Assembly (NCBI GenBank): GCA_003173895.1 | Contig: PJMG01000001.1 | Span: 15,576 to 79,575, forward strand | Origin: Candidatus Levyibacteriota bacterium | GTDB taxonomy: Bacteria > Patescibacteriota > Microgenomatia > Levybacterales > UBA12049 | Direction of reading: 5' to 3' | DNA: 64,000 bases | Part shown: positions 27,262-43,859 of the stretch, one piece after another | Layout: each line of letters begins with the position of its first letter | Position numbering within the stretch: position 1 is the stretch's first letter | Program-made: the position numbers and the translations under genes | Notes under the pieces: model-generated | Databases searched by the model: none | The model's input: only the letters and a program-made list of their open reading frames with translations | What the model was told of the DNA's origin: nothing

Positions 27262-27407
27262 TTTCACAATTTTATTGACTTATTTACTATTATAATGCTA
27301 AACTAATAAACATTATGAATTGGCAGTGCCTTCACTATACAACTATTAATCTCTCAGCTAGAGGGATGCATTTGTGTGGGAGGATACAAGTCTAAAAAGA
27401 AATTAAA

Positions 27408-27440
27408 TAAAAAATTCAACCTCCCAAAATGGGAGGTTTT
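27408..27440 (+). terminator. Intrinsic terminator/attenuator hairpin AACCUCCC-AAAA-UGGGAGGUU + U-run
   Basis: Perfect inverted repeat followed by a T-run, immediately before the ATG at 27450. Confidence 0.5.
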
Positions 27441-27449
27441 TTAATATTT

Positions 27450-28262
27450 ATGATAAGCGAAAACGAACAACTTAAACAAATCCAAGAAGCTAAAGCTAAT
27501 TTAAAAATAAGCTATGATAATTATTGGCGACGAAGACGTGAGGTAGGCAATCCTCACATGAGCCAAGAAATATACACATTAAGAGAAAAATTGGCACAAG
27601 CAGAGGAAGGATATAGACAAACGCTAGGTATAGATGGAATAATTGTTCCCTCACATTTTAATTCTTTTTCAAACGAAAGAAATAAAATTAGAGATTTACA
27701 AGATCGTTTTGGAATGGAAATCACTACTGTGGGAAGAATTGGTACATTGGCTTTAAATGGAGAAGATCCAATTAGAGCTGCTGAAATATTAGAAGAGCGT
27801 GGTATACACTATGCAATATTAGTATCTGGTCCTGGTGGATCATATATTATAGAAGGAAGTAAAGGACAAAAACATAGTAATATAAGAGAAGCTTTGTGGG
27901 GAGTAGAACCAGAAATTGGTTTAAGACGTCCTGATGTGTCAGGTTTCATTTTTAATATCGATGGTAGAAAATTTTTTGTTACAGACGACCCTACGGGGGA
28001 TATGCTATGGCCTTCGTTACATTTTACCTTAGATAGTGGATATCAAATGGGCGCAGAAGTATTAAACGTTAACTCTAATCTTAATGGAGCAAGAAATATT
28101 TTTAATAAAACCAGACGTCAAATAGGAATAAAAAGATTAGATGATAAATCTGCAGTCATTTTATTAGGTGAAAGTTTAAAGCCTCTAATATTAAACACAT
28201 TTAATATGCAAGCAAAAATTAATCAAATAGAAGCGCGTATTAAAGGCCATCAATTTAATTAG
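27450..28262 (+). CDS. Hypothetical protein
   Basis: ORF with start reassigned to ATG 27450, downstream of the hairpin. Confidence 0.45.
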   Translation: MISENEQLKQIQEAKANLKISYDNYWRRRREVGNPHMSQEIYTLREKLAQAEEGYRQTLGIDGIIVPSHFNSFSNERNKIRDLQDRFGMEITTVGRIGTLALNGEDPIRAAEILEERGIHYAILVSGPGGSYIIEGSKGQKHSNIREALWGVEPEIGLRRPDVSGFIFNIDGRKFFVTDDPTGDMLWPSLHFTLDSGYQMGAEVLNVNSNLNGARNIFNKTRRQIGIKRLDDKSAVILLGESLKPLILNTFNMQAKINQIEARIKGHQFN

Positions 28263-29566: not shown

Positions 29567-29590
29567 ATCTAGTTTAGTATAACGTATTTA

Positions 29591-30241
29591 TTATTTTATA
29601 GTAATAATATTTGGATCAGTACCTAATATCCACATTATAAAATATGGATATTGAGATAGGGTAGGATCAGTCTTAAAAGATGTAAGTCCCATTATTTCTA
29701 ATTCTTGGTGTATTTCAAATTCTTGAAGTTGGCCAAGCGCTTCCGCTGTTTGTTTATCATTTAATTCCTCATCACCAATTTCATCATAAATATAAGGATT
29801 ATACGAGCTTAGTACAGCACGTACTTCAGAATCCTCAGGGAATTTTGTTTCTAAGAGCAATTCCACTAATTTAAACGCACCAAAAAGTTTCAATCCTTTA
29901 ATAGCAGTTGCTAAAATATCTCTAGGATTAATTATCTTATCTTCAGAAGAAACTTCAGCATTAATTTCTCCATTATTTTTTGATACATATATATAAGAAT
30001 AGTTATTAGGTTGAGAAGAATTATTTGTACTTATTAATACTTTTTTAGATGAAACTTCATCCAACTGGTTCGCTGGAATTACGGATAAATATAAATGTTG
30101 GATAGTTCCATTTTCTAAATTTTGGTTAATGGTAATTATTCCTGTATCTTTCCTTAATACAGATATATCTCTATTAGATTCAACTAAATTTTTTAAATTT
30201 GTAATTGCTGTTTCTATATTCAAGCTTTCTGGATTTGACAT
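29591..30241 (-). CDS. Hypothetical protein
   Basis: ORF only. Confidence 0.4.
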   Translation of the reverse strand: MSNPESLNIETAITNLKNLVESNRDISVLRKDTGIITINQNLENGTIQHLYLSVIPANQLDEVSSKKVLISTNNSSQPNNYSYIYVSKNNGEINAEVSSEDKIINPRDILATAIKGLKLFGAFKLVELLLETKFPEDSEVRAVLSSYNPYIYDEIGDEELNDKQTAEALGQLQEFEIHQELEIMGLTSFKTDPTLSQYPYFIMWILGTDPNIITIK

Positions 30242-30319
30242 AAGCGTATTATATTAAATGTAATTCCACTTGTAAATTTAGTAGTTGACAGATAAACAAG
30301 CTGTTTGATAACATAATAT

Positions 30320-30429
30320 TCATAAATATGAAATCTACACAAATGTATATTGTCCTTTTTATTAACCGCTAAGGCGGAGGGACTTTTTCGTATAGAAAAG
30401 TTTTCAACCGCCAAATAGGCGGTTTTTTT
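30320..30429 (+). promoter_or_regulatory. Leader-peptide transcription attenuator, copy A (three hairpins ending in an intrinsic terminator)
   Basis: Hairpin 1 GUCC..CCGC-UAAG-GCGG..GGAC, hairpin 2 CUUUUU/GAAAAG, terminator AACCGCC-AAAU-AGGCGGUU + U7 at 30407-30429. An alternative GGCGG:CCGCC antiterminator is possible. Nearly identical to copy B. Confidence 0.55.
30328..30372 (+). CDS. Putative leader peptide MKSTQMYIVLFINR (14 aa)
   Basis: ATG 30328 to TAA 30370-30372. The stop codon sits in the loop of hairpin 1. The C-terminus is conserved with the copy B peptide. Confidence 0.4.
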   Translation: MKSTQMYIVLFINR

Positions 30430-30435
30430 GTGGAT

Positions 30436-31605
30436 ATGAAAGATAATTTACTTAAATTAAATTTAAAAAAAGATTATTCAGAACGTAAAAATATTGGTAC
30501 ATTTACCTCTATTTTTAGATCTCCTATGTTACAAGAATATATAGACTATTATTTAAATAAAAATTTTGTAGATAAAAATGCTTACGAATCTTTACATTAT
30601 TTAAAAGAAGATGTTTTAAGTAATTTTTTCCATTCTTTATTTGAGATAAAAGAAGGGAAAATTCTTACTACCTCTGGATCAACTGAATCTATATTATTAG
30701 CCTTATTTTATGCTAGAGAAAAAGCAAAAGTAGAAAAAGGTATTAATAAACCAAATATTATTGTAGGAGAGAATACTCATTATAGTATTCAGAATTGTGC
30801 ACGCTTCTTAAAAATACATGTAAAATATGCAGGATTAAATGATAAGTATGAAATAAATATTAAAGATGTAGAAAAAAGAATAGATAAAAATACTATTTTA
30901 TTAGTGGGTACGTTGGGTACTACGGAATTAGGAGTCGTTGATAATATTTTATTATTAGATAAATTAGCTATCGAATATAATATTCCTTTACATATTGATG
31001 CGGCTATAGGAGGCTTTATTCTCCCATTTTTAGAAAAGAATAATGATTATTCATTCTCTAGTTTAAAAAGTTTATTTTCTATGAATATATCCGGACATAA
31101 ATTTGGACTAGCCCTACCGGGTAGTGGGATACTCTTATTAAGAGAAAAACATTTAATCGATAATCATGGTGGTGAAATAGAATACTTAAGTTCAGGTAAA
31201 AGTATAGTAGAAAATCTTTTAATTTCATCTAACTCTCTTGGAGTTTTAAGTCTAGGTATAAATATATTAAGTTTAGGAAAAGAAGGATATAAAAATTTAG
31301 CTGAGAATTATTTAAAAACAAAAAAAGTATTACAGAGAGAATTAGACAATTTAAAGGTAGATTATTTTTCAGGATCTAACTACATGCCACAGTTATTTTT
31401 ACACCCAGAAAATGTTAAGGAGATATCAAAAAAACTTGCGGAAAATGGATGGATTCAACACACCTATAAGCCAAAAGGATTACAAAAAGAAGGAATTCGT
31501 ATTGTAATAAAGAATAATCAAGAAATGCTTTTAGAAAAAGACTTATTAGATGACTTAAAATTTTGGAATAAAGAGATGAAAGGAGAAAATTATATTTATG
31601 AATAA
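30436..31605 (+). CDS. PLP-dependent group II decarboxylase (MfnA/GadB-like)
   Basis: PLP-Lys motif NISGHKFGLA. Fold-type I pattern TTSGSTESILLAL...HIDAAIGG. Start taken as ATG 30436; GTG 30430 is the alternative. Confidence 0.7.
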   Translation: MKDNLLKLNLKKDYSERKNIGTFTSIFRSPMLQEYIDYYLNKNFVDKNAYESLHYLKEDVLSNFFHSLFEIKEGKILTTSGSTESILLALFYAREKAKVEKGINKPNIIVGENTHYSIQNCARFLKIHVKYAGLNDKYEINIKDVEKRIDKNTILLVGTLGTTELGVVDNILLLDKLAIEYNIPLHIDAAIGGFILPFLEKNNDYSFSSLKSLFSMNISGHKFGLALPGSGILLLREKHLIDNHGGEIEYLSSGKSIVENLLISSNSLGVLSLGINILSLGKEGYKNLAENYLKTKKVLQRELDNLKVDYFSGSNYMPQLFLHPENVKEISKKLAENGWIQHTYKPKGLQKEGIRIVIKNNQEMLLEKDLLDDLKFWNKEMKGENYIYE

Positions 31606-32959
31606 AAATGAAATACAAAATCATATAGTATTTCAAAATACTCCAGATGTATTAGACCCTGCTCAGATGAGCGGAGCTACTGGTAGAACGGCAGAATTAA
31701 TTATGAATTTATTAGCCAGAGCAAATCATATGGCTCTTACTGGAGATACTGTAATTAATTCTTCAAATGTCCCTGATGATTTTATTCAATATTTATCAGC
31801 TGTTACTGGGGAATATCCAGATATAGTAAAAACTCAAATAGAACCTCCTTTATTTACAAAAGATTTATTAGATGCTTTACCTACTGGATCTTTTGAAGGA
31901 TATTTACTTGATCCCTATATTCAGTCAAAAACTATTGCTCTATATAGTCAAGAACAAAATATACCCATGGCATATACTCCTTCTGAAACTATTTTAAATG
32001 GAGTTACCGATTTAGCAAATAATAAAAAATATTTTAGAGAAACTGCAAATCAATTAGGTATACCATTAATCCCTGATCAAGCAACGTTCACTACAGAAGA
32101 CTTTTCTGGGTTGCGAAAAAAAATTATAGATATGATGAAAAAACATAAGAGTGTATTTATACAAGCTAACAGTTCTGGTGGTGGCATTGGTAATATTGAT
32201 ATTAGAGGAAATACTTGGCAATCAAAATTAGGATTAGGTAAAGAGAAAGTTTTAGAAGAATTGAAAAAATGGATGAAAGAAATGAAAGACGCTGGATCGG
32301 ATACAATTCTTCTAGCTCCATATGTTGAATTACTTTCTAGTCCTACTGTTAGTGGATTTATTCCTAAGGAAGGCGAACCGATAATTTATGGTATTTTTGA
32401 CCAAACTTTAGATCCTACTTCTCATGACTATCAAGGATTTGAATGGCCAGCCAATGATCAATATTCAAAGATTTATGGATCTACTATGATTAAGGGAGCA
32501 AAAAAATGGTTTAAGCATCTACAAAAGTTAGGGTATGTAGGTCCTTCCGACGTGGATTACATTATAGGATACAATGATGCATTAGGAGAAGTAATAGGAG
32601 CAAGTGAATCAAATACTAGATGGGACGCATTTAGATTCGCTCTTCAACATGCAGGAAGATTACAGAGATGGAATTTAAGGACACTTGAAGGAATTGATGT
32701 TTTAAATGCTCCTTATATTAAATCTAATGATCATATACATACAAACGCAGCTTCAACTACAGAAATAGTTCAAAGATTACGTAATGGTAGAATTCCTCTG
32801 TTAGGATTAGATCATCAACAAATGGGAATTATTGTTATGGTACCTCCACAACCTACTGATAGACGAGGAGACCAACAATTAGCGTTGGCTGTTATTGGAC
32901 CAGATAAAAAAACAACGAAAAAACTTTTTGAAGATGCACAAATTTTACTGCATAGTTAA
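31598..32959 (+). CDS. ATP-grasp-like enzyme (putative amino-acid/peptide ligase)
   Basis: Gly-rich loop FIQANSSGGGIGNIDIR. The C-terminal ESNTRWD resembles the ATP-grasp E-x-N-x-R motif. Moderate confidence. Confidence 0.45.
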   Translation: MNKNEIQNHIVFQNTPDVLDPAQMSGATGRTAELIMNLLARANHMALTGDTVINSSNVPDDFIQYLSAVTGEYPDIVKTQIEPPLFTKDLLDALPTGSFEGYLLDPYIQSKTIALYSQEQNIPMAYTPSETILNGVTDLANNKKYFRETANQLGIPLIPDQATFTTEDFSGLRKKIIDMMKKHKSVFIQANSSGGGIGNIDIRGNTWQSKLGLGKEKVLEELKKWMKEMKDAGSDTILLAPYVELLSSPTVSGFIPKEGEPIIYGIFDQTLDPTSHDYQGFEWPANDQYSKIYGSTMIKGAKKWFKHLQKLGYVGPSDVDYIIGYNDALGEVIGASESNTRWDAFRFALQHAGRLQRWNLRTLEGIDVLNAPYIKSNDHIHTNAASTTEIVQRLRNGRIPLLGLDHQQMGIIVMVPPQPTDRRGDQQLALAVIGPDKKTTKKLFEDAQILLHS

Positions 32960-32964
32960 ATAAA

Positions 32965-34059
32965 ATGATTAAAATAAATAGGCAAAGACTTATAGAAAAT
33001 TTTATAGCTCTTGTTAAAACAAACAGTACTTCAGGGAATGAAAAAGATATTAGTAATTTTTTAAAAAGTAATTTAGAAAATTTAGGTGGTAAAGTAACTT
33101 TTGACTCTTATGGGAATCTTTTATCTTTTTTTGAAGGTAAAGGAGAAACAATAATATTAAATTGCCATTTAGACACAGTTCACCCAGGTGAAAATATAAG
33201 AACCATTCAAAAAGGAGATAGACTCTTTTCAGATGGTAAAACCATATTAGGAGCAGACGCAAAAGCAGGATTAGCGATAATTTTAGAGATTCTTAATTTA
33301 AGAAAAGAAAAAAAAATAAATTGTCCTCCTTTACAAATTATCCTCACTAAAGAAGAAGAATCTGGTCTTATTGGCGCTAGGAATTTAGACTTTAGTTTAG
33401 TTAAAGGGAAATATGGTTTGGTGTTTGATGGAGATTTTGGACCTGACAATATTACAATTTATGCTCCAGGTTATTATTTTTTTGAATGTTCAGTTTTAGG
33501 TAAAGCAGCTCATGCTGGAATGGAACCAGAAAAAGGCGTATCTGCTATTTTAGGTGCGGCAAAATTAATAAATAAAATTCCCTTTGGACGAATAGATTCC
33601 GAAACTACTCAAAATATCGGTATTATACAGGGTGGAGACGGTACTAATATAATTTCTAATAAAGTAATTTTTAAAGGAGAAATTAGGGGTAGAAATAAAA
33701 CTAAATTATTAAAGCAAATAAAAAAATTAAAGTTTATTATAGAAAAATTTTTAAGTGAAAATAAAAATATCAAAGTAAAATTAAATGGACAAATTATATT
33801 CGATCCTTACGCTTTTAGTCTAAAAAACAAATTTTTAAAAAAAATTCAATTAGCATATGAACCAATAGGATTAAAACCTAAATTTTTACCTTCAGGTGGA
33901 GGTACAGATGCTAATATTTTTAATAATAAGGGTTTTAATCTATTTCCTATAGGTTTTGGTGCATATAATACTCATACAACTTCTGAGTATCTAATTCTAT
34001 CTGAAATGGAAAAAACACTAATTTTTTGTATTAATCTTTTAAAAATAAAAAGAAGATAA
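32965..34059 (+). CDS. M20-family peptidase, PepT (tripeptidase)-like
   Basis: CHLDTVHPG, GADAKAGLAI and TKEEESGLIGA motifs. Confidence 0.7.
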   Translation: MIKINRQRLIENFIALVKTNSTSGNEKDISNFLKSNLENLGGKVTFDSYGNLLSFFEGKGETIILNCHLDTVHPGENIRTIQKGDRLFSDGKTILGADAKAGLAIILEILNLRKEKKINCPPLQIILTKEEESGLIGARNLDFSLVKGKYGLVFDGDFGPDNITIYAPGYYFFECSVLGKAAHAGMEPEKGVSAILGAAKLINKIPFGRIDSETTQNIGIIQGGDGTNIISNKVIFKGEIRGRNKTKLLKQIKKLKFIIEKFLSENKNIKVKLNGQIIFDPYAFSLKNKFLKKIQLAYEPIGLKPKFLPSGGGTDANIFNNKGFNLFPIGFGAYNTHTTSEYLILSEMEKTLIFCINLLKIKRR

Positions 34060-34088
34060 ATTCTTTTATCAATATTATTGTCCAGTAT

Positions 34089-34227
34089 TTGACATCATAT
34101 TTTAAATACACTATAATCTCATTATGAGTTCGAAATACGCACAAGTTTTTGTCCTTATTATTAACCGCTAAGGCGGAGGACTTTTTATATAAAAAAGTTT
34201 CAACCGCCAAAAAAGGCGGTTTTTTTG
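34089..34227 (+). promoter_or_regulatory. Sigma70 promoter (TTGACA-17-TATAAT) plus leader-peptide attenuator, copy B
   Basis: Perfect -35 and -10 at 34089-34094 and 34112-34117. Same three-hairpin element as copy A. Terminator AACCGCC-AAAAA-AGGCGGUU + U7 ends at 34227. Confidence 0.55.
34124..34171 (+). CDS. Putative leader peptide MSSKYAQVFVLIINR (15 aa), leaderless
   Basis: The ATG lies 7 nt after the -10 box. The TAA falls in the loop of hairpin 1. The C-terminal VL(I/F)INR-stop is conserved with copy A. Confidence 0.4.
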   Translation: MSSKYAQVFVLIINR

Positions 34228-34239
34228 TAAAATGAACTT

Positions 34240-35331
34240 ATGTTAGATCAAATAAAATTATTAACCAATATTTTACTCTCTATTCATTCTGTAAAAACAG
34301 AATTTGAGAATTTAAATTTAGCCTTAGAAGTGGCTGAAACAGAACTCTCTGAATTTAAAATAGAAAAATTTACCAGTAATAATTTCCCCAGCCTTTTAGT
34401 CTATAATCAACACACTTTACCTGCCAAATTTAAGGTAATTTTAAATGCTCATTTGGATGTCACACCAGCTCCTGATGAATTTTTCCATGCAAAAGAGAAA
34501 AGTGGAAAACTTTATGGTCGTGGAGTATATGATATGAAAGCAGCCGCAGCTGTAATGATTTTAGTTTTTAAAGAAATGGCTAAGAAGGTTAATTATCCGC
34601 TAGGACTTCAATTAGTAACTGATGAAGAACTAGGTGGCCATAATGGAACTAAATATCAAATAGAAAAAGGCGTAAAAAGCGATTTCGTTTTATGTGGAGA
34701 TGCTTCTAATTTAGAAGTAGTTAATAAATCTAAAGGCTTTGCTTGGATGAAGATAAGTTGTAAAGGTGCTACTTCTCATGGAGCTTATCCATGGGAAGGA
34801 GATAATGCTTTGTGGAAAATAAATCATTTTCTAAATAAATTAAAGCAAGCATTTCCAATACCTGAAAAAGATTCATGGGTTACTACTATTAATTTAGCTA
34901 AAATAGAAACATCTAATAATACATTTAATGAAATACCATCTGATTCTACAGTTTGGTTGGATATAAGATATATTCCTGAAGAAAAAAATATCTTAAGGAA
35001 AAAGATTCTAGATCTTATACCTAAAGATTTTTCTTATAAATTCGTATTAAATGAATCTTATGCATATCTAGATCCTAAGAATGAGTATATTCAGAAACTT
35101 CAAAACGCAAGCGAGAAAGTGATAAAAAAACCTTTAACTATCTCTGCTCACAATGGTGGATCTGATGCTAGACTTTATACTAATAAAGATATGGATAGCT
35201 TAGAATTCGGGCCTAAAGGTGGGAGATTACCTGATGGTAACGAATGGATAGATTTTAAAAATCTGGAAGAGTATCATAAAATTTTAAAAGAATTTTTAAA
35301 ATCAATAAATAATTTTTCATTAAACAATTAA
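34240..35331 (+). CDS. M20-family peptidase (ArgE/DapE-like), tandem paralogue 1
   Basis: NAHLDV, YGRGVYDMKA and LVTDEELGG motifs. Confidence 0.7.
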   Translation: MLDQIKLLTNILLSIHSVKTEFENLNLALEVAETELSEFKIEKFTSNNFPSLLVYNQHTLPAKFKVILNAHLDVTPAPDEFFHAKEKSGKLYGRGVYDMKAAAAVMILVFKEMAKKVNYPLGLQLVTDEELGGHNGTKYQIEKGVKSDFVLCGDASNLEVVNKSKGFAWMKISCKGATSHGAYPWEGDNALWKINHFLNKLKQAFPIPEKDSWVTTINLAKIETSNNTFNEIPSDSTVWLDIRYIPEEKNILRKKILDLIPKDFSYKFVLNESYAYLDPKNEYIQKLQNASEKVIKKPLTISAHNGGSDARLYTNKDMDSLEFGPKGGRLPDGNEWIDFKNLEEYHKILKEFLKSINNFSLNN

Positions 35332-35337
35332 CTGACC

Positions 35338-36453
35338 ATGACTATGGACGAAGATATTTTAGAATTAACTAAAAATCTAATAAGTTTACATACTGTGTCT
35401 AAAAATTCAGGAGTAAATGCTGACGCTTTAGCTTTTATAGAACATTATTTAAAGGATTCACATTTATTTTTTAAAAAATACCATAAAAATGGAATCTATA
35501 ATTTAGTTATTTCTAATAAACCAGTAACAAATAATTTTGATCTTATTTTGCATGGACACATAGATGTAATCCCTGCTACAAATCCAGAAGATTTTATTCC
35601 TAGAGTAGGGAACGGAAAATTATTTGGTCGCGGATCCATGGATATGAAAGGAGGATTGGCAGCCTTAATAGTTTTGATGAGAGAAATAGGAAAAGGAAAT
35701 ATTCAGATAGATAAAAATATTGCACTTTTTATAACTGCAGATGAAGAGTTGGGTGGAGCTAATGGAACTAAATATTTAATTCAACAGTTAGGCTATAAAT
35801 CTAAATTTTTTTTAACAGGCGAGGGAGTAAAAGAAAATTTTCCTATTTATAATAAGAGTAAAGGAGTTCTCTCTTTAAAAGTAAAATCTAAGGGAAAAGG
35901 AAAACATGCATCTCTACCTTGGTTAGGAGAAAGCGCTATAGATAATTTAATAAATTTCTATCATGATATTAGAATTTTATTTCCTAAAAAAGATAATAAA
36001 AATAATTGGTATTCTACCTGTTTATTAAGTACTATATATGGTGGAGAAGCTATTAATTCTGTATCAGAATATGCAGAAGGTAGTATAGACATACGCTTTA
36101 CAGAAGAATTCAAATCAGCAGATCAAGTTTTAGAAAAAATTTATAGTATTCAAAAAAATCATCCTGGAATTAGCTTGGAAGTAGTAGTAAAAAATGAAAT
36201 GTTAAATACTTCTAGAGATAATAACTATATTAAAATATTAGCAAATGCTGTTAAAAAAAATATCAATCCATGGAATAATTATTTTTTAAGTGCTCATGGA
36301 GTTTCAGATGCTAGATTTGCTGCTGAAAATGGAATACCTGGTGTAGAATTTGGTCCTTCTGGCAATAATAGTCATAGTACTAGTGAATATGTAAAAATTG
36401 ATAGTTTATCTGTGTTCTATGATATCTTAAAAGATTTTATTAAAAATATTTAA
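35338..36453 (+). CDS. M20-family peptidase (ArgE/DapE-like), tandem paralogue 2
   Basis: HGHIDVIP, FGRGSMDMKG and ITADEELGG motifs. Confidence 0.7.
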   Translation: MTMDEDILELTKNLISLHTVSKNSGVNADALAFIEHYLKDSHLFFKKYHKNGIYNLVISNKPVTNNFDLILHGHIDVIPATNPEDFIPRVGNGKLFGRGSMDMKGGLAALIVLMREIGKGNIQIDKNIALFITADEELGGANGTKYLIQQLGYKSKFFLTGEGVKENFPIYNKSKGVLSLKVKSKGKGKHASLPWLGESAIDNLINFYHDIRILFPKKDNKNNWYSTCLLSTIYGGEAINSVSEYAEGSIDIRFTEEFKSADQVLEKIYSIQKNHPGISLEVVVKNEMLNTSRDNNYIKILANAVKKNINPWNNYFLSAHGVSDARFAAENGIPGVEFGPSGNNSHSTSEYVKIDSLSVFYDILKDFIKNI

Positions 36454-36460
36454 ATTATTT

Positions 36461-37531
36461 ATGATTGACCAAATTAAATCTCTAAGCAGTTTACTTATTT
36501 CTATTCCTTCTGTAAAAGGAGATAGAAAAAGTTTAGACTTAGTTTTAACAGTAGCTAAACAAGAACTTTCAGACTTTAAAGTAAAAGAATTTGAAAGTAA
36601 TAATATTCCTAGTTTACTAGTTTATAATACTGAAACTTTACCTGAAAAATTTAAAGTTTTAATTAGTGCTCATTTAGATGTCGTTCCTGCTAAAAAAGAT
36701 CAATTTAATGCGGTTGAGAAAAATGGCCGGCTTTATGGTCGTGGAGCATATGATATGAAAGCTGGTGCAGCTGCCAGTATATTAGTATTTAAAGAAGTAG
36801 CTAAAAAAGTGAATTATCCCTTTGGCCTTCAATTAGTAACTGATGAGGAAATTGGTGGATATGATGGTGCTTTATATCAAGTGAAACAGGGAGTTAAAAC
36901 TGATTTTGTTATAGCCGGTGATTCATCTAACTTCTCGATGGTAACAGAAGCTAAAACACTCTTCTGGATAAAAGTTAGTGCACCGGGTAAAACAGAACAT
37001 GCAGGTTATCCCTGGTTGGGAGACAATGCAATTGATAAGATGGTAGATTTTGCTAAAAGAGTAAAAGAAGAATTTCCCACTTTAAAAGAAGATAAATGGA
37101 CCAATACAGTAACACTCTCTAAAATAGAAACTAATAATATAGCAATTAATAAAATACCTGCTGACTGTAGTACTACGTTTGATATTCGTTGTATTCCTGA
37201 AGATAGAGAAAAAGTTTTTAATAAATTTATCAGTTTAATTCCTAAAAATTTTAAATATGAAGTTTTATTAGATGAACCCGCAGAATTAACTCCTAAAGAT
37301 AGTCCATATTTACAGAAATTAGTCTCTACAGTTGAAAAAGTGACTGGAAAAAGACCAGAAATGATTACTAAACACGGTCTATCTGATGTACGTTTTTTTA
37401 TGGAACAAGGAGCACATGGTACCCAATTTGGTCCCAAGGGAGCAGGACATCATAGTGATGATGAGTGGGTAGACCTTAAAAATTTAAATGACTACTATCA
37501 TATATTAAAAAACTTCCTCCTTTCACTTTAA
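36461..37531 (+). CDS. M20-family peptidase (ArgE/DapE-like), tandem paralogue 3
   Basis: SAHLDVVP, YGRGAYDMKA and LVTDEEIGG motifs. Very similar to 34240..35331. Confidence 0.7.
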   Translation: MIDQIKSLSSLLISIPSVKGDRKSLDLVLTVAKQELSDFKVKEFESNNIPSLLVYNTETLPEKFKVLISAHLDVVPAKKDQFNAVEKNGRLYGRGAYDMKAGAAASILVFKEVAKKVNYPFGLQLVTDEEIGGYDGALYQVKQGVKTDFVIAGDSSNFSMVTEAKTLFWIKVSAPGKTEHAGYPWLGDNAIDKMVDFAKRVKEEFPTLKEDKWTNTVTLSKIETNNIAINKIPADCSTTFDIRCIPEDREKVFNKFISLIPKNFKYEVLLDEPAELTPKDSPYLQKLVSTVEKVTGKRPEMITKHGLSDVRFFMEQGAHGTQFGPKGAGHHSDDEWVDLKNLNDYYHILKNFLLSL

Positions 37532-37564
37532 CTTAAAAATATCCTTTGGTATAATCAAACAACG

Positions 37565-37637
37565 GACGGTTAGCTCAGTTGGTTAGAGCGTTACATTGAC
37601 ATTGTAAAGGTCACTGGTTCGAGTCCAGTACCGTCCA
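37565..37637 (+). tRNA. tRNA-Val (anticodon GAC)
   Basis: Acceptor GGACGGT/ACCGTCC, D-arm GCTCAGTTGGTTAGAGC, anticodon stem TTACA/TGTAA with loop TTGACAT, T-arm ACTGGTTCGAGTCCAGT. Confidence 0.8.
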
Positions 37638-37662
37638 CTAAATAATTTGCTACAATACTATT

Positions 37663-38214
37663 ATGACGCGAGATCAAGCTTGGGAAATCTTAAATAAACA
37701 TCTTAAAAACGATAAGCTTATTAAACACTGCTTAGCTGCTGAAGCTACTATGCGAGGTTTAGCAAGATATTTTGGTGAAGATCAAGAAGTTTGGGGAATA
37801 ACAGGACTTCTGCACGATGCAGATTATGAAAAGTCAAAAGGTCACCCAGAAAAACATGGACTTTTACTTTTTGAGTTAGAAAAAGATATCCCTGATGATA
37901 TAAAACATGCTATTCAGTCACATAATTACGATGATACTAATGTCATGCCAGAAACTAAAATGGATTGGGCTATCACTTGCTGTGATCAATTAACTGGACT
38001 TATAGTAGCCTGTGCACTAGTAACACCAAACAGAAAACTTTCCGAATTAACTAACGACTTTATTATAAAGAAATTAAAAGAAGTAAAATTTGCAGCAGGA
38101 GCAGATAGATCTAAAATTTATATGTGTGAGGAAAAATTAGGAATTCCTCTTATAGAATTCGTAACCATAGCATTAACTTCTATGCAGGAAATCAGCGATC
38201 AATTAGGCCTCTAG
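37663..38214 (+). CDS. HD-domain (HDIG-type) phosphohydrolase
   Basis: HCLAAEATMRGLA ... GLLHDADY motifs. Confidence 0.6.
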   Translation: MTRDQAWEILNKHLKNDKLIKHCLAAEATMRGLARYFGEDQEVWGITGLLHDADYEKSKGHPEKHGLLLFELEKDIPDDIKHAIQSHNYDDTNVMPETKMDWAITCCDQLTGLIVACALVTPNRKLSELTNDFIIKKLKEVKFAAGADRSKIYMCEEKLGIPLIEFVTIALTSMQEISDQLGL

Positions 38215-38240
38215 TTTTCTTATCTTATTCTTAAAATTAT

Positions 38241-38537
38241 TTGTTATTTAAAAAACCTATGAGTAAAAGACAATTTATAAAAACTAAATATATTAAAGAA
38301 GTACCCACGAATCAAGAAGTTAATAAATCGGCTGATAAATATTTAGCTGTAGACCGTTCTAAAAAAGCTTTATTTATAAATAATTTTATTGGTGGAATTG
38401 CATGGGGAATAGGAGCTAGTATTGGTGCGTCAATAATAATCACTATACTCGGATTTATTTTAGGACAATTGGGTTTTATTCCATTTCTTCATCCATATAC
38501 TTCACAAGTATTAAAATTTTTCCCACATAAACAGTAA
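38241..38537 (+). CDS. Small membrane protein, hypothetical
   Basis: C-terminal glycine-rich TM segments GGIAWGIGASIGASIIITILGFILGQLGF. Confidence 0.4.
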   Translation: MLFKKPMSKRQFIKTKYIKEVPTNQEVNKSADKYLAVDRSKKALFINNFIGGIAWGIGASIGASIIITILGFILGQLGFIPFLHPYTSQVLKFFPHKQ

Positions 38538-38545
38538 AATACTGC

Positions 38546-38684
38546 TTGCGTCGATAAATTATTCATGTTAATATATTTTTATGATTAAAAATATCGCAAT
38601 GAATTGTCCAACTACAAAGTCAACTTCTGATTAGGAGGTTTTCTTTTTGTGGAAAAGTATAACCTCCGAAAGGAGGTTTTTTTT
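38546..38684 (+). promoter_or_regulatory. Promoter (TTGCGT-17-TGtTAATAT) plus leaderless leader-peptide attenuator, copy C
   Basis: Antiterminator GGAGGUU (38634-38640) pairs with AACCUCC. The competing terminator AACCUCC-GAAA-GGAGGUU + U8 lies at 38661-38684. The leader-peptide stop codon overlaps the antiterminator 5' arm. Confidence 0.5.
38581..38634 (+). CDS. Putative leader peptide MIKNIAMNCPTTKSTSD (17 aa), leaderless
   Basis: ATG is 7 nt after the -10 box. The last seven sense codons include three Thr and two Ser. TAG lies at 38632-38634. Confidence 0.35.
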   Translation: MIKNIAMNCPTTKSTSD

Positions 38685-38692
38685 GTGCCTTT

Positions 38693-39880
38693 ATGGAATT
38701 AAAAATACAACCATCATTACAACCATTACATGAATTAGCAGAAAGCTCTTTTTCTTATGGTAGAGCACAGGCTAAAATACAACCTTTAGAGCAAGCTAAT
38801 AGAAATTCTCGTGTAATAGCTAGAAAATTAGGAGAGATCGTAGAGGGATTACAATTATCTATCGACATTCCTGAAACAAGAAGAATAATTAGTCATGATA
38901 ATGGCAATGCCTTTGCTGAAGTAATTTTAAACGGAAAAAAACATTTTATTATGGCTAGAACACCATTAGATGGAAGAAACTTTAGTGAATCTCTACAAGA
39001 ACAGAAGCCTGAAGTAACTATCGTAAGTGGTCCATGTTTATTTAGTGCCGATGCAGTACAAGCTATTTCTCATGAAGGAGAAAACTTTGCCCTTACTAGG
39101 CGCGGAGAAATAATTAATCAAACTATTTCTCATATAAATGTTGATAATAATTTATCCTTGTATGAAGCAGAAGCTATTTCTAGATTAAGTACTTTAATTC
39201 ATGATTTAGTACAAAATAACCAACATATTAAACACGTCGCGCTTAATATTCCAGAAGCAGAATATTATCTTTTTGGTCTGGAAGCATTTGAACAAGGACA
39301 TCTCTCTTCTCATCAATTAAGAGAATGGTTTAATAATGTGGATTATAGACATGATAGGCAAATTAAATTAATTAAAAATAGAATTCAAAGAGGTACAAAT
39401 GTAGAAATTTATGAATCTTCACCTCTTTTACCTGTTAAAAACTATATACGTATTAAAGTATTAAATAATGAATTACCAACCTTTTCTGAAGCTGTTGAAT
39501 TATTATCAGAAAATAATGAATTATGGAGAGATCTCTTTGCTGTAAGTAAAATTAACAATTGGCAAGATATTATTGATTTATCTTATGTATATGCTGAACT
39601 TGAAGCAGGAGAACAACACGGTGGAAAACCTACATTCGCTCTAGTTATAGAAAATCCAACTGAAAATAAAATATTTGCTAATGCTAAAAAGGTAGCTATA
39701 GAACTTCAGAAAATACGCTCAAGAATTTTTAATGTTGTGGCCATTTATCCTCATGAATTAATTCTTCCTGTAGGAGATAATGCTAATAGAACTATGTATC
39801 ATATAACAGAAACTACTGATGATAAATTTTCATTATTTAGACAAATTGTTAATATATATAGGAGAGGAGGATCTGTATGA
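38693..39880 (+). CDS. Hypothetical protein
   Basis: ORF, first gene downstream of attenuator C. Overlaps the next gene by 4 nt. Confidence 0.45.
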   Translation: MELKIQPSLQPLHELAESSFSYGRAQAKIQPLEQANRNSRVIARKLGEIVEGLQLSIDIPETRRIISHDNGNAFAEVILNGKKHFIMARTPLDGRNFSESLQEQKPEVTIVSGPCLFSADAVQAISHEGENFALTRRGEIINQTISHINVDNNLSLYEAEAISRLSTLIHDLVQNNQHIKHVALNIPEAEYYLFGLEAFEQGHLSSHQLREWFNNVDYRHDRQIKLIKNRIQRGTNVEIYESSPLLPVKNYIRIKVLNNELPTFSEAVELLSENNELWRDLFAVSKINNWQDIIDLSYVYAELEAGEQHGGKPTFALVIENPTENKIFANAKKVAIELQKIRSRIFNVVAIYPHELILPVGDNANRTMYHITETTDDKFSLFRQIVNIYRRGGSV

Positions 39881-40938
39881 AAAAGAATTTAAATTATCAA
39901 AATGCAATATCCATGATTCGGGGCTCTTCTATATATTCTACAGGAGGTGGATTTGCTTACAGTGGGCAAAAAAGAATGTTTAATAATCTTTTTAAAAAAG
40001 TAAATTCCATTAAATTAATTTCTATAGATGAATTAAAAGATAATGATTATATTTGTACTGCATATGCCGTAGGCTCTGCTGGAAATACAGACATTGACTT
40101 ATCACCAGCATTAAGACAAGGCCTTCAAGTCTTACAAAATTTTACTGGTATTAAACCCAAAGCTATTTTTGCTGGAGAAACGAATATTGATATTATTGCT
40201 TCTCAATCGGCAGTAGCTTTAAATTTACCTATATTAGACGCAGATAGTAATGGCGGTAGGGCTGTACCAGAAATACAAATGGATAATTTTGTAATTTATG
40301 ATAAACCCATTACTCCTGTGGTAGTTGTAACTTTAGACGGAGATGTTGCTATTTTGCAACAAACTAAAAATCCATATAATATAGAAAATTTTGTGAGATC
40401 TATCGCAGGTAATTCAAAAATTGGTATGGTAGCAGTATTAGATCATTTAATTCAAGTTAAACTAGCAAAGAAAATATTAACACATGGTATTTTTAGTAGA
40501 TCACTTAAATTGGGTCAATTAATTCAAGAGAATTATAATAATCAAGATTTGTTAGAAAAAATAATTAGAGAAATTAACGGGCAGTTATTAATTAAAGGAA
40601 AAGTTTTTAAATCTACTTTAAAAAGTAATTTAAAAGAAGGTTTTCTAAATGGGGATTATTTTATAAAAGATAGAAAAGGAAATGTGGTAAAAGTTTATGC
40701 TAAAAATGAGAATATAATTTGTTGGAAAAATAATAGAGTATTTGCTACAAGCCCTGATAGAATTTTGACTATTGATACTAAAACATTTTTAGGTATTCAT
40801 AACAGTCAATTAAAAGAAGATGAAGAAGTAGCTGTTATAGTAGCTAAAGCAAGTGAAATGTGGAGAAGTAAGAAAGCTCTAGAATTATTTGAACCTAGAC
40901 ATTTTGGTTTTTTATTTAAACCTAAATTATTAAAGTAA
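39877..40938 (+). CDS. Hypothetical protein (Gly-rich N-terminal GSSIYSTGGGFAYSG motif)
   Basis: ORF, translationally coupled to the upstream gene. Followed 38 nt later by thrS. Confidence 0.45.
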   Translation: MKKNLNYQNAISMIRGSSIYSTGGGFAYSGQKRMFNNLFKKVNSIKLISIDELKDNDYICTAYAVGSAGNTDIDLSPALRQGLQVLQNFTGIKPKAIFAGETNIDIIASQSAVALNLPILDADSNGGRAVPEIQMDNFVIYDKPITPVVVVTLDGDVAILQQTKNPYNIENFVRSIAGNSKIGMVAVLDHLIQVKLAKKILTHGIFSRSLKLGQLIQENYNNQDLLEKIIREINGQLLIKGKVFKSTLKSNLKEGFLNGDYFIKDRKGNVVKVYAKNENIICWKNNRVFATSPDRILTIDTKTFLGIHNSQLKEDEEVAVIVAKASEMWRSKKALELFEPRHFGFLFKPKLLK

Positions 40939-40976
40939 TTGTTTTAAAAACTAGTAGCGTTTGCTATCATATTGCT

Positions 40977-42740
40977 ATGAATGAGAACAAAGAAAAATTA
41001 GAACATCTTAGACATTCTGCAGCGCATTTACTTGCAGCGGCCATTATTGAATTATGGCCTGGCTCTAAACAAACTATTGGTCCTGCTATAGAAAATGGAT
41101 TTTATGAGGATATGGATTTAGGTGATGTAAAAATTTCAGAAGCAGACTTACCAAAGATTGAAGAAAAAATGAGAGAAATAGTTAAAGGGTGGAAAAAATT
41201 TGAAAGAATGGAAGTTTCTAAAGAAGAAGCCATTAAAGCGTTCCCTAATAATGAATATAAACATGAATTAATAAATGAATTTGCAGACCAAGGAAAAACA
41301 TTAACTATTTATAAATCTGGTGATTATATAGATCTTTGTCGTGGAGGACATGATATGGATCCATCTGAAGATTTAAAACATTTTAAGCTCTTAAAAATAG
41401 CAGGAGCATATTGGCGAGGAAATGAAAAAAATAAAATGTTAACTCGTATTTATGGAGCTGCATTTTTTACTCAAGAAGAATTAGATAATTATTTAAAAAT
41501 GCTGGAAGAAGCAGAAAAAAGAGATCACAAAAAGATCGGTCGAGAGCTGGATCTATTTATATTTGTAGATAGTGCTGCAGGGATGCCATATTGGTTACCA
41601 AAAGGATTGATAATCTACAACGAACTACTCAACTTCTCACGAGAAGTTCATAAAAAATTTGGGTATCAAGAAGTTATGACTCCTATTATAAATAAAAAAG
41701 AATTATTTGAAACTTCAGGACATTGGTTTCATTATCGAGATGATATGTTTATTTCACCGATGAGTTATCTGAGAAGCGATTCTAAAGATCCCTACGAAGG
41801 AACTGAAGTTTTTGGTATAAAACCTATGAATTGTCCCAATGCTATGAATATTTTTGATTCTAAAACTCGAAGTTATAGAGACTTACCTATGAGGCTTTCT
41901 GAAACTACAGCGCTTCATAGATTTGAATTATCTGGAACTTTAAACGGCTTATTTAGAGCCAGAGAATTTCATCAAGATGACTCTCATACTTTCTTAGCTG
42001 TTTCACAAGTAGAAGAAGAATTTAAAAAAATTATGGAAATGATCGAGATTTTTTATTCTAGTTTCAATCTTTCTTACAAACTCAGATTTGGTACTAGACC
42101 AGAGAATTTTATGGGTGAAGCTTCTGACTGGGATATTGCAGAAAAAAGCCTTGAAGGAGTTTTAAAAGAATCAGGTAAAGAATATTTTAAAGTAGAAGGA
42201 GAAGGAGCATTTTATGGTCCAAAAGTAGATATTTTAATGAAAGATTCGCTAGGGCGTGAATGGCAGACAGGAACGATTCAACTAGATTTTCAGCAACCAA
42301 AGAATTTTAAATTAAAATATACTGATTCAAACGGTAAAGAAACACAACCAGTAGTTTTACATAAAGCCATTTATGGCTCATTAGAACGTTTTTTAGGCAT
42401 ACTAATTGAGAATTATATTGGTAAACTCCCACTTTGGCTTTCGCCAGTTCAAGTAGTAATTTTACCAATTGCTGATAGACATATAGATTTTGCTAAAAAA
42501 CTTACCAATGAACTATCCACTGCTAATATTCGTACGGAAATTGATATAACTAGCGAGCGTTTGCAAGCTAAAATACGAAATTTTACTTTACAAAAAGTGC
42601 CCTTTATGGGTATAATAGGAGATCAGGAAGTCGAAAATTCATCTGTTGCTATAAGATCCCGAGAGGGTGAAGATTTAGGAAAGATGAAATTAAACGACTT
42701 AATTAATTTCTTAAAAGACAAAATTGATAAAAAGATTTAA
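40977..42740 (+). CDS. thrS: Threonine--tRNA ligase (lacking N-terminal TGS domain)
   Basis: HSAAHLLAAA (HxxxH editing/N2 motif) sits at the very N-terminus. Class II core and anticodon-binding domain follow. Shorter than canonical ThrRS. Confidence 0.85.
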   Translation: MNENKEKLEHLRHSAAHLLAAAIIELWPGSKQTIGPAIENGFYEDMDLGDVKISEADLPKIEEKMREIVKGWKKFERMEVSKEEAIKAFPNNEYKHELINEFADQGKTLTIYKSGDYIDLCRGGHDMDPSEDLKHFKLLKIAGAYWRGNEKNKMLTRIYGAAFFTQEELDNYLKMLEEAEKRDHKKIGRELDLFIFVDSAAGMPYWLPKGLIIYNELLNFSREVHKKFGYQEVMTPIINKKELFETSGHWFHYRDDMFISPMSYLRSDSKDPYEGTEVFGIKPMNCPNAMNIFDSKTRSYRDLPMRLSETTALHRFELSGTLNGLFRAREFHQDDSHTFLAVSQVEEEFKKIMEMIEIFYSSFNLSYKLRFGTRPENFMGEASDWDIAEKSLEGVLKESGKEYFKVEGEGAFYGPKVDILMKDSLGREWQTGTIQLDFQQPKNFKLKYTDSNGKETQPVVLHKAIYGSLERFLGILIENYIGKLPLWLSPVQVVILPIADRHIDFAKKLTNELSTANIRTEIDITSERLQAKIRNFTLQKVPFMGIIGDQEVENSSVAIRSREGEDLGKMKLNDLINFLKDKIDKKI

Positions 42741-43284
42741 TAAACCCAATACTAAGTTTTATAGAATTAACGAGAGGATTTTTGCTAACGAGCTTCGTGT
42801 AATAGATAGCGAAGGAAAGCAAATCGGAATTTTAAGTAAACAGGAAGCATTAAGTAAAGCCAGAGAAGAGGGATTAGATTTAGTAGAAATAGCGGAAAAT
42901 GCGAAGCCACCTGTAGCTAAGATTATTGATTTTAATAAATTTTTATATCAGGAAGCGAAGCGTAAACAGGAGGAGAAGAAAAAAGCTAAAACGACAGATA
43001 CTAAAGAGATTAGACTCGGCCCATTCATGGGTGAAAATGATTTGCAGACCATGATTAGCCGTGCGAGAGGATTTTTAGAGGATGGGAATAAAGTAAGATT
43101 TGTGGTAAAATTTAGAGGAAGACAGATAATTAGGACTAATTTTGGCTTTGAACTTTTACAGAGAATATTTAAAAATTTAGAAGATATTTCTAAAGTAGAT
43201 AGAGAACCAAAATTAGAAGGTAAACAGATTTTTTCGATTATATCGCCAGAAAGGAAAACTAAAAATGCCAAAACAGAAAATTAA
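42724..43284 (+). CDS. infC: Translation initiation factor IF-3
   Basis: YRINERIFANELRVIDSEGKQIGI...LDLVEI...PPVAKIIDFNKFLYQ. The start is non-canonical (TTG 42724 or ATA 42727) and overlaps the thrS 3' end. Confidence 0.8.
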   Translation: MIKRFNKPNTKFYRINERIFANELRVIDSEGKQIGILSKQEALSKAREEGLDLVEIAENAKPPVAKIIDFNKFLYQEAKRKQEEKKKAKTTDTKEIRLGPFMGENDLQTMISRARGFLEDGNKVRFVVKFRGRQIIRTNFGFELLQRIFKNLEDISKVDREPKLEGKQIFSIISPERKTKNAKTEN

Positions 43285-43462
43285 AAGATCCGTACAAAGA
43301 CGTTTTAGAGTGACTAGAACTGGAAAAGTTATTTTCGCTCATCAGTATAATAGTCATTTAAAAAGCGGTAAAAGTAAATCTAGAAAAAGAAGACAAGCAG
43401 TACCAGGAGTTTTAAATGTTGCTTTTGCTAGGAAAATAAAGAGATTATTAGGATATTTATAA
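43265..43462 (+). CDS. rpmI: 50S ribosomal protein L35
   Basis: MPKQKIKRSVQRRFRVTRTGKV. Confidence 0.8.
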   Translation: MPKQKIKRSVQRRFRVTRTGKVIFAHQYNSHLKSGKSKSRKRRQAVPGVLNVAFARKIKRLLGYL

Positions 43463-43466
43463 ATAT

Positions 43467-43811
43467 ATGAGAGTTAAAAGAGGACTAGTTTCTAAAAGAA
43501 AACATAATAAGATTTTTGATTTAACTAAAGGTTATCGAGGATCTAGAAATAGACTTATCAGAACTGCTAAACAATCAGTTATTCAAGCAGGTGCTTATTC
43601 TTTTGCTGGTCGAAAAAACAGAAAAAGAGATTTTAGAGCTCTTTGGATTACCAGAATTTCAGAAGCTGTAAAAGAATATGGAGTTTCATATAGTAAATTT
43701 GTAAAACAATTAAAAACAGCACAAGTAAATTTAAATCGTAAAATGTTAGCAGATTTAGTATTAAATGATAAAGAAAGTTTTAAAAAAGTGGTTGAAGCAG
43801 TAAAAGCCTAA
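43467..43811 (+). CDS. rplT: 50S ribosomal protein L20
   Basis: MRVKRGLVSKRKHNKIF...GYRGSRNRLIRTAKQ. Confidence 0.85.
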   Translation: MRVKRGLVSKRKHNKIFDLTKGYRGSRNRLIRTAKQSVIQAGAYSFAGRKNRKRDFRALWITRISEAVKEYGVSYSKFVKQLKTAQVNLNRKMLADLVLNDKESFKKVVEAVKA

Positions 43812-43836: not shown

Positions 43837-43859
43837 AATCCGCTTATAGCGGATTTTTT
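43837..43859 (+). terminator. Intrinsic terminator after rplT
   Basis: AATCCGC-TTATA-GCGGATT + T-run. Confidence 0.55.

Follow-up and report, generated by a model that had tools for sequence, protein, structure and literature searches.

A putative threonine-responsive leader-peptide attenuator ahead of an uncharacterised two-gene module and thrS in a Candidatus Levyibacteriota genome

The region considered here lies at 38546-42740 of a 64,000-nt stretch of contig PJMG01000001.1 from a Candidatus Levyibacteriota bacterium (the whole stretch is called the window below). Downstream of an open reading frame (ORF) for a DUF5665 protein it holds, in order, a promoter-like site, a very short ORF, a series of mutually complementary segments ending in an intrinsic terminator, and three genes: two uncharacterised ones, here called gene A and gene B (together A-B), and thrS (Table 1). 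A reading made earlier from the letters without database searches (the sequence-only reading) had described the three ORFs as lying on one strand, with a 38-nt gap before thrS, and this is the case; indeed every sequence feature that it named is present where it was placed. It had also proposed a mechanism, with a leaderless leader peptide, mutually exclusive antiterminator and terminator hairpins, and read-through on threonine stalling, which gains support from comparison with related loci, although four points needed correction. As a whole, and including the threonine stall, the element at 38546-38684 is best explained as a classical four-segment, ribosome-sensing leader-peptide transcription attenuator, at a rough probability of 0.7. 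From its sequence and those of its relatives, it is very likely to be a ribosome-mediated attenuator; that threonine is its main signal is probable.

The leader ATG at 38581 begins six bases past the -10 box of a promoter-like TTGCGT-17-TGtTAATAT (the distance had been given as 7), and G38634 is common to the TAG stop codon and to GGAGGUU (38634-38640). The proposed overlap of this stop codon (38632-38634) with the 5′ arm of a hairpin, itself exclusive with a downstream terminator AACCUCC-GAAA-GGAGGUU plus eight U, was borne out by reading the sequence. The terminator loop, GAAA, lies between AACCUCC (38661-38667) and GGAGGUU (38672-38678); the U tract is eight U long (38677-38684), two of them within the stem; and the inner antiterminator stem is closed by GAAAAG (38652-57). 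Folding of the leader region, the check suggested for the original proposal, did return competing hairpins, but also a segment that had been overlooked: segment 1, inside the leader ORF, which completes a four-segment layout with 1:2, 2:3, and 3:4 helices. Their calculated energies are -12.4 (1:2), -13.1 (2:3, the antiterminator, 38634-38667), and -10.9 kcal/mol (3:4, the terminator), and the region is more stably folded than shuffled sequences (z = -2.3).

The codons UCA ACU UCU, which had been counted among the sensing codons, are mostly structural, since they form the part of segment 1 complementary to GGAGGU. In other lineages the segment-1 positions read KTFL or KHLL, with complementarity to segment 2 kept, so the Ser/Thr-rich tail of the peptide is largely a product of RNA pairing. 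The sensing codons would then be ACU ACA (T11-T12), possibly together with their neighbours.

A further short frame runs through the same sequence. A GTG at 38649, ten bases after the GGAGG of segment 2, opens 17 codons (MEKYNLRKEVFFVPLWN, 38649-38702) that pass through the terminator and end over the start of gene A, and in L001, one of the related loci, a similar frame opens with TTG. Such a frame may have arisen by chance, or it may serve in coupling.

Table 1. Coordinates of the putative attenuator, the genes downstream of it, and other attenuator-like units in the window.
Feature	Coordinates	Strand	Sequence or description
Promoter-like site	-35 38546-38551; -10 38566-38574	+	TTGCGT, 17-nt spacer, extended -10 TGtTAATAT; read from sequence
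Leader ORF, putatively leaderless	38581-38634	+	MIKNIAMNCPTTKSTSD, 17 codons, then TAG (38632-38634)
Proposed sensing codons	38611-38616	+	ACU ACA (T11-T12), within leader ORF
Segment 1	38612-38628	+	CUACAAAG uc AACUUCU, inside leader ORF; 5′ strand of anti-antiterminator; from minimum-free-energy fold of 38581-38680
Segment 2	38634-38652	+	GGAGGUU uucu UUUUGUGG; partners either segment 1 or segment 3
Segment 3	38653-38667	+	AACCUCC (38661-38667) is terminator 5′ arm and antiterminator 3′ arm
Segment 4 and U tract	38672-38678, U tract to 38684	+	GGAGGUU, Shine-Dalgarno-like; 3:4 is the predicted intrinsic terminator (terminator scan)
Gene A	38693-39880	+	395 aa, uncharacterised family
Gene B	39877-40938	+	353 aa, DUF917 / S-Me-THD-like; PF06032 and PF20906; start overlaps gene A by 4 nt
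thrS promoter-like site	40943-40970	+	TTTAAA, 16 nt, TGcTATCAT (40962-40970), 6 nt to ATG
thrS	40977-42740	+	threonine--tRNA ligase, 587 aa; TIGR00418, 654 bits
Candidate attenuator	34092-34228		TTGACA-17-TATAAT, ATG six bases on; leader MSSKYAQVFVLIINR; before M20 deacylase genes 34240-35331, 35338-36453, 36461-37531
Candidate attenuator	30286-30431		GGCGG/CCGCC solution; leader MKSTQMYIVLFINR; 29 bits with covariance model R1
Attenuator-like unit	27274-27445		promoter-like TTGACT-17-TGcTAAACT; ORF MNWQCLHYTTINLSARGMHLCGRIQV; terminator AACCUCCCA-AAA-UGGGAGGUU and U tract

The dependence of the fold on ribosome position was modelled by masking the mRNA from its 5′ end to 15 nt past the first base of the P-site codon, codon by codon, and computing the probability of the terminator helix. 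For the window element this is 0.90 without a ribosome, 0.02-0.08 with the A site at N8-T11, 0.48 at T12, 0.80-0.82 at K13 and S14, and 0.92-0.94 from T15 to the stop codon; a ribosome at the last two to three codons already lies over segment 2, favouring termination. Most of 24 leaders folded in this way gave the same three-phase profile, the exceptions being L017, with no permissive codon, and L12a and L39, with one each (related loci are designated by L numbers). Across the 24, threonine makes up 50 of the 115 permissive codons, vs 36 of 262 elsewhere, and it is the only residue found in the permissive window of all eight of the closest A-B leaders. Of the Thr and Ser codons whose conservation in orthologous leaders the original proposal had depended on, it is the Thr of the permissive window that is kept in the eight closest leaders; the Ser/Thr tail is largely structural, and more distant leaders differ (see below).

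Because the terminator of the window copy is slightly favoured at equilibrium once segment 1 is masked, transcripts cut before segment 4 were also folded, as a kinetic proxy; no thermodynamic switch is claimed. In these folds the antiterminator is present for stalls anywhere up to the third-last codon, and in all 24 leaders it cannot form when the ribosome stands at the stop or on the final one to three codons. In transcripts ending at segment 3, 81 of 86 Thr codons are compatible with the antiterminator, and in each of the 19 short-type leaders the stop codon is 0-5 nt from segment 2. In these models the codons are placed as an attenuator would need them: a stalled ribosome leaves segment 2 exposed, and one that has reached the stop codon hides it.

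Homologues of gene A were collected by a word-indexed search (six clusters among 5.8 billion proteins) and a profile search (446 more distant representatives, E<=1e-3); scanning metagenomes with the gene A alignment added nothing beyond the type of contig seen in L003. All 10 gene A loci read have a TTGACA-type promoter, a mini-ORF a few bases past the -10, a G-rich segment at its stop, the complement of this, a G-rich repeat, and a U tract, and three- or four-way complementary segments are present at every gene A locus found. The peptides vary. There are tandem leaders in L001 (MIRLFAANCPSTKTTS and MIRNFNSNCPGTETSTS) and in L002 (MKRIFAIVCSTKTTS and ...NNCSTTKTTAS); L006 has MKFNFVNCVCTKKTFL, and L003 and L005 have MNS(R/H)IA..TTKKHLLSERDAFVV; the leaders of more distant A-B pairs include ..LTKKTKKKPF.., ..STKKTKREPL.., MRSFAYKFVLIIR, and MKIIELQNSMKHHLLAHAG. 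In the relatives, the start codon of the next gene comes 0-12 nt after the U tract. The rule that segment 2 equals segment 4 and is the complement of segment 3 is kept in five different solutions (GGAGG/CCUCC, GGGGUU/GACCCC, GAGGGG/CCCCUC, GGCGG/CCGCC, and GCGGGG/CCCCGC). More generally, 55 of the 89 U-tract terminators in the window and related loci have an upstream copy of the 3′ arm with a short ORF ending beside it, vs 0.6 expected from shuffled upstream sequence.

A DUF917 gene directly follows gene A in all 10 loci, so that A-B is a conserved module. What comes after it is variable: thrS in the window; another attenuator, a DUF2000 gene, and thrS in L002; lysS in L003 and L004; and a gene for a RuvB-like AAA ATPase in L061 and L062. 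The switch therefore appears to belong to the A-B module rather than to thrS as such. The sequence-only reading had it feeding thrS, which does lie downstream and could be reached by read-through, but its primary association is with the two-gene module.

The public call for the gene A homologue in L002 (1548-2837; P0003, 429 aa) begins inside the second leader/attenuator, the start supported by alignment being at ~1647-1653; in these genomes gene callers evidently absorb leader ORFs.

Evidence for threonine comes largely from thrS itself. A genome scan with the window ThrS gave 34 related thrS loci, whose upstream regions were searched for a terminator with an upstream copy of its arm and a short ORF. 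In at least 13 of the 34 the same switch lies no more than ~1 kb upstream of thrS, and 3-6 Thr codons are found in its leader; these Thr-run leaders include MKIQIALTTTTTLS, MKSAQITTITTNS, MQNKQLVITTTTTTL, and MNKQFALTTTTAL, as well as MANQFISTTTTIS, MIYSDIITTTIIL, MSNFSKIITTTTTP, and MIANHNITTTTIPS. No gene separates the switch (here with 4-6 Thr codons) from thrS in L011, L017, and L039; at other loci the interval holds small unknown genes, a HAD phosphatase gene, or genes for a P-loop kinase and a DUF2000 protein. In L002 a third switch, with leader MKQYFAVTTTTTAL and likewise a run of 4-6 Thr codons, lies between gene B and DUF2000-thrS. Among the 49 species representatives in the ThrS genome scan, none has an A-B pair upstream of thrS.

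A covariance model (R1) built from 14 of the thrS-proximal Thr-run leaders, with the window excluded, matches the window element at 38584-38684 over the full length of the model (48.4 bits, E = 3.6e-8 in 110 kb), and also matches the leaders before A-B in L001, L002, and L006, with 40-56 bits. Its alignment puts the window codons CCA ACU ACA AAG onto the Thr-run columns, which suggests that T11-T12 are a remnant of the Thr run, or its counterpart. For the window leader, thrS downstream and the Thr runs before thrS in relatives would fit cognate codons, but the immediate targets, A and B, are uncharacterised, and other A-B lineages have different leaders.

The related loci that carry thrS also have Phe/Tyr/Trp-rich leaders, placed before pheA (prephenate dehydratase), aroA (EPSP synthase), aroK (shikimate kinase), and pheS. 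The strongest case for amino-acid-specific, ribosome-mediated attenuation in the clade is made by this agreement of leader composition with the gene downstream.

Examples of aromatic leaders with the same switch are MFFMIKGLNFGFYFTHPTGR, MSKHTMSLYFKFTSL, and MTNKLFFFTFISFN (L013 7980-8100, L024 6889-6985, L023 6986-7090, L034 7159-7245). Leu/Ile-rich leaders such as MQKIKNLILVILNSLKGGKSDA precede small unknown ORFs in related genomes. Many of the thrS loci (L009, L010, L013, L016, L019, and others), with thrS 60-74% identical to that of the window and the same candidate phyla radiation (CPR)-style leaders, come from assemblies titled “uncultured Gammaproteobacteria bacterium,” “Candidatus Eisenbacteria,” “Sulfotelmatobacter,” or “Acidiferrales”; these titles look taxonomically unreliable.

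The promoter of the window leader scores 8/12, under the threshold of the consensus scan, and promoter-like matches are not enriched in this AT-rich window (60 found vs 61.6 expected). The call is weak on sequence alone, and its support is its conserved position: all 21 first-in-line homologous leaders have a near-consensus TTGACA-like -35 and a 16-18-nt spacer, often with an extended -10, ending 6-13 nt before the ATG. None of these 21 has a Shine-Dalgarno sequence upstream of the leader ATG. Leaderless initiation seems to be common in this organism, since a -10-like hexamer lies 5-9 nt before the start in 18 of the 52 window ORFs of at least 150 aa (e.g., 40977, 43913, 37663, 52185), vs 11% at random positions, and a Shine-Dalgarno-like core is found in nine of the 52. 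The site before pheS (43913) reads TGGACA-18-TATAAT, with the ATG six bases on.

A separate promoter for thrS in 40939-40976 had been named as something to look for, and a promoter-like site was found there, TTTAAA-16-TGcTATCAT, six bases before the ATG; in 25 of the 34 related loci the thrS ATG is preceded, at 6-10 nt, by a -10-like hexamer. On the + strand the scan gave no terminator-like site from 38684 as far as a hairpin at 43837-43855, so that read-through could extend to thrS-infC-rpmI-rplT. It may thus add to thrS expression, without being its sole source.

The mechanism that we infer supplies a transcription start, translation of the leader, the amino acid sensed, and actual termination or read-through to what was established in silico, namely the anatomy, its conservation, the homology to Thr-run leaders adjoining thrS, and the dependence of the fold on ribosome position. 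The transcript would begin at or beside the A of the ATG at 38581, giving a leaderless mRNA, and a ribosome would read the 17-codon leader while RNA polymerase advances. With no ribosome, segment 2 would be held by segment 1; with one at the last codons or the TAG, segment 2 would be covered. In either case the GC-rich 3:4 hairpin and its U tract would form and transcription would end at ~38684. When charged tRNA-Thr is low, the ribosome would stall with ACU or ACA (T11/T12) in the A site, to which Lys13 or the preceding Asn-Cys-Pro codons might contribute. The stalled ribosome would open segment 1 and leave segment 2 free to pair with segment 3 once this is made; no terminator would form, and the Shine-Dalgarno-like segment 4 would be single-stranded. 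The polymerase would then enter genes A and B and, meeting no further terminator, might go on through thrS-infC-rpmI-rplT, read-through being for thrS a starvation-induced addition to its constitutive leaderless promoter-like site. The window attenuator would thus gate an uncharacterised two-enzyme module, could extend into thrS, and is most likely threonine-responsive.

Several points weigh against this reading. All of the evidence is in silico, from sequence analysis and equilibrium folding. When the window copy is folded with its segment 1 under the mask, the calculated energies are -14.8 kcal/mol for the terminator state and -13.1 for the antiterminator; since the terminator is slightly the more stable, read-through would depend on kinetics. 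The window leader has two adjacent Thr codons and one later, vs four to six in thrS-proximal relatives, and threonine sensing alone does not account for a conserved leader motif, N-C-(P/S)-x-T-K. The leaders of distant A-B pairs are Thr/Lys-rich (LTKKTKKK), hydrophobic (YKFVLIIR), or His-containing (KHHLLAH), so the module is not tied to threonine throughout the family. The thrS gene has a conserved leaderless promoter-like site of its own. Lastly, in a MAFFT alignment the 2:3 and 1:2 helices are 79-82% paired in register vs 25-65% when slid, yet these counts are not above those of shuffles, and RNAalifold, run on MAFFT alignments of 21 and 14 leaders, recovered the terminator alone; the other helices are missed because indels between the segments misalign them. 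The pairing appears conserved from the per-sequence folds and the five concerted solutions, and is not claimed as statistical covariation.

Among alternatives, the first is an attenuator that responds to more than threonine, or to something else entirely: Thr might be sensed jointly with Lys and/or Cys or Asn. Multivalent attenuation of this kind is found in the E. coli thr leader, which responds to Thr and Ile. A Thr-Lys pair is present in nearly all A-B-type leaders (TTK, STK, CTKK, TTKK, TKKTKKK), TTKK being at a locus where lysS comes after A-B; six of the eight closest A-B leaders have Cys in the permissive window; and Lys13 is another codon at which the kinetic proxy allows the antiterminator. 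However, one tandem copy, L001b (GTETSTS), has no Lys, L003 and L005 have no Cys, and Thr is the sole residue in the permissive window of all eight; in addition, the R1 alignment sets the window codons on the Thr run of thrS leaders, and thrS is the gene downstream in the window. A signal broader than, or other than, threonine is unlikely on this evidence.

As a second possibility, control might be exerted on translation, with the 3:4 hairpin hiding a Shine-Dalgarno-like segment 4, or a general slowing of ribosomes being sensed, such that any stall in the leader opens it; the erm and cat leaders, with stall-opened control, provide a model. Segment 4 does contain GGAGG, which the antiterminator frees, and in relatives the start codon lies directly past the U tract. 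In the window, though, GGAGG is 16 nt from the gene A ATG, a long distance for a Shine-Dalgarno sequence, and every copy has 5-8 U right after a GC-rich stem, which would be needless for masking alone. Leader content also tracks the downstream gene (Thr with thrS; aromatic with pheA, aro genes, and pheS), which argues for amino-acid specificity. Control of this second kind is improbable here.

The mini-ORF might instead encode a functional small peptide, such as a Cys/Ser/Thr-rich precursor modified by A and B, the leaky terminator setting the precursor-to-enzyme ratio as it does in some operons for ribosomally synthesised and post-translationally modified peptides (RiPPs) or of the microcin C type. 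The peptide is indeed Cys-, Ser-, and Thr-rich at its C-terminus, is present in tandem copies in L001 and L002, and precedes uncharacterised enzymes. Against this, the Ser/Thr tail is dictated by complementarity to GGAGG, the leader peptides of distant A-B pairs are unrelated, and the four-segment switch and fixed distance from stop codon to segment 2 would have no role. The same architecture is found before thrS, pheS, pheA, aroA, and peptidase genes, with leaders matching the genes, and searches of A and B turned up no known family of RiPP enzymes (A lacks a Pfam or NCBIfam assignment, and B is DUF917). A precursor function is accordingly very hard to credit. That the hairpin is an ordinary terminator for the DUF5665 gene, with ORF and promoter as chance features, might be suggested by its position 124 nt past the DUF5665 stop codon and by the sub-threshold score of the leader promoter, but is effectively refuted by the joint conservation of promoter, ORF, and terminator-arm copy, by L003, where the unit follows murB instead, and by the 55 such units seen vs 0.6 by chance.

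A four-segment attenuator responding to threonine would be classical in principle. The E. coli thrL leader, like trpL, hisL, pheL, and leuL, has a short promoter-proximal ORF with cognate codons, 1:2, 2:3, and 3:4 helices, and an intrinsic terminator before the structural genes; there, too, a stall gives read-through, and completed or absent translation gives termination. The window element differs in having no sequence or Rfam relationship to thrL, in being apparently leaderless, and in having just 2-3 Thr codons. Its segments are Shine-Dalgarno/anti-Shine-Dalgarno-like GGAGG/CCUCC repeats, such that the 3′ arm of the terminator reads as a ribosome-binding site, and what it would control is an uncharacterised enzyme pair together with an aminoacyl-tRNA synthetase, instead of a biosynthetic operon. 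In Rfam searches, Thr_leader (RF00506) gave no match even at E<=10 in window positions 37500-43500, nor at E<=1 in six related loci; the T-box model gave none in these regions, nor was any known leader or riboswitch found in them. Phe_leader (RF01859) gave only sub-threshold hits; the one in the window, at 23.5 bits (E = 1.5, 38629-38686), is far from the gathering score of 55 and reflects terminator/hairpin resemblance only.

Among other controls of thrS, the T-box of Bacillus thrS/thrZ binds uncharged tRNA directly and the E. coli thrS operator binds ThrRS, neither having a translated leader; like the window element, both couple thrS expression to the state of tRNA-Thr or ThrRS. Synthetase genes are also controlled by leader-peptide attenuation in E. 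coli pheM-pheST, and bacilli have leader peptides before hisS paralogues (PMC2965389). In both, a synthetase gene is attenuated through cognate codons, as would be the case here, although amino acid and taxa differ. A further parallel is in Streptomyces lividans, which has leaderless leaders before leuS, trpS, alaS, and thrS (Droste et al., 2021, PMC8079986). Its thrL (MKRVRPFLETTPGFVPAR) is a leaderless short ORF with two Thr codons directly upstream of thrS, and is read as Thr-dependent attenuation. Streptomyces belongs to another phylum and its element lacks a clear U-tract terminator (PMC8079986), whereas the window terminator is canonical and two genes intervene before thrS. The earlier suggestion that the switch differs from the known thrS controls was overstated, given the leaderless Thr leader annotated upstream of thrS in that species. 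The principle is classical and has a Streptomyces precedent; what is new is the phylum, and the orphan module downstream.

To our knowledge, almost nothing is known of gene regulation in uncultured CPR/Patescibacteria, and a full-text literature search found no paper on leader-peptide attenuation in these groups. It is possible, if somewhat doubtful, that this Microgenomates-type lineage relies not on T-boxes and riboswitches but on a broad regulon of leaderless leader-peptide attenuators, covering synthetases, aromatic genes, M20 peptidases/deacylases, and A-B, the last being a starvation-induced salvage system or one acting on aminoacyl-tRNA. If so, these small-genome bacteria would gauge tRNA charging with the simplest device, a leaderless mini-ORF with Shine-Dalgarno/anti-Shine-Dalgarno repeats, by which peptidases, synthetases, and unknown enzymes would be switched on. 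The codon content of a leader would be a functional label for hypothetical genes downstream. The gene A-DUF917 module would be marked as induced by threonine or lysine starvation, which would open this orphan pair to experiment, and for thrS there would be a third phylum-level solution, beside the translational operator and the T-box.

Gene A has no Pfam or NCBIfam match, ten representatives from its profile search that were checked have no Pfam match, and a profile search against PDB sequences found nothing. Its AlphaFold model is confident (pLDDT 80.5, pTM 0.84) but gave only weak Foldseek matches in the PDB, the best (E = 8e-3, TM 0.43 on target) to cyclodipeptide synthases and others to class I aminoacyl-tRNA synthetases; a cyclodipeptide-synthase-like fold is a lead only. 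The family includes versions of 545-883 aa, with DUF917 adjoining at every locus examined (window, L001-L006, L058-L062). The gene B product is far under the equivalog cut-offs for thiohydantoin desulfurases; a resemblance to hydantoinases has been proposed for DUF917 proteins, and cyclodipeptide-oxidase clusters are enriched in them (bioRxiv 10.1101/2023.09.25.559410). From the setting we would infer at most that a starvation-induced role for A-B in amino-acid salvage is coherent.

The closest relatives of both thrS and gene A are in Microgenomates/Patescibacteria assemblies. The window ThrS begins at the editing/second additional domain; its match to TIGR00418 starts at residue 12, leaving no room for an N-terminal TGS domain such as that of E. 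coli ThrRS. The LysRS encoded after A-B in L003 (8319-10490; lysS also follows in L004, 2546-3382) is 723 aa long, with a C-terminal extension of ~240 aa matching the B3_4 domain of PheRS beta.

The window holds two further clear attenuators and a weaker third candidate (Table 1). The segments of the unit at 34092-34228, which R1 matches at 29.9 bits, are GGCGGAGG / CAACCGCC / GGCGGU, followed by seven U. The unit at 30286-30431 is followed by genes for a pyridoxal-phosphate (PLP)-dependent decarboxylase (30436-31605), an unknown 453-aa ORF, and a PepT-like M20 peptidase, and its leader type recurs before the distant A-B pair of L058 (MRSFAYKFVLIIR). The leaders of both the three-gene M20 operon and the PLP-decarboxylase operon are hydrophobic. 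The third candidate, at 27274-27445, is matched by R1 at 31.7 bits, has no clear permissive window in the ribosome-mask model, and precedes an unknown ORF (27450-28262) with no Pfam match.

Five M20 peptidase/deacylase genes lie within 28259-37531 (28259-29566, on the - strand; 32965-34059; 34240-35331; 35338-36453; and 36461-37531). None reaches an equivalog cut-off; the cluster suggests a heavy investment in the salvage of peptides or N-acyl amino acids.

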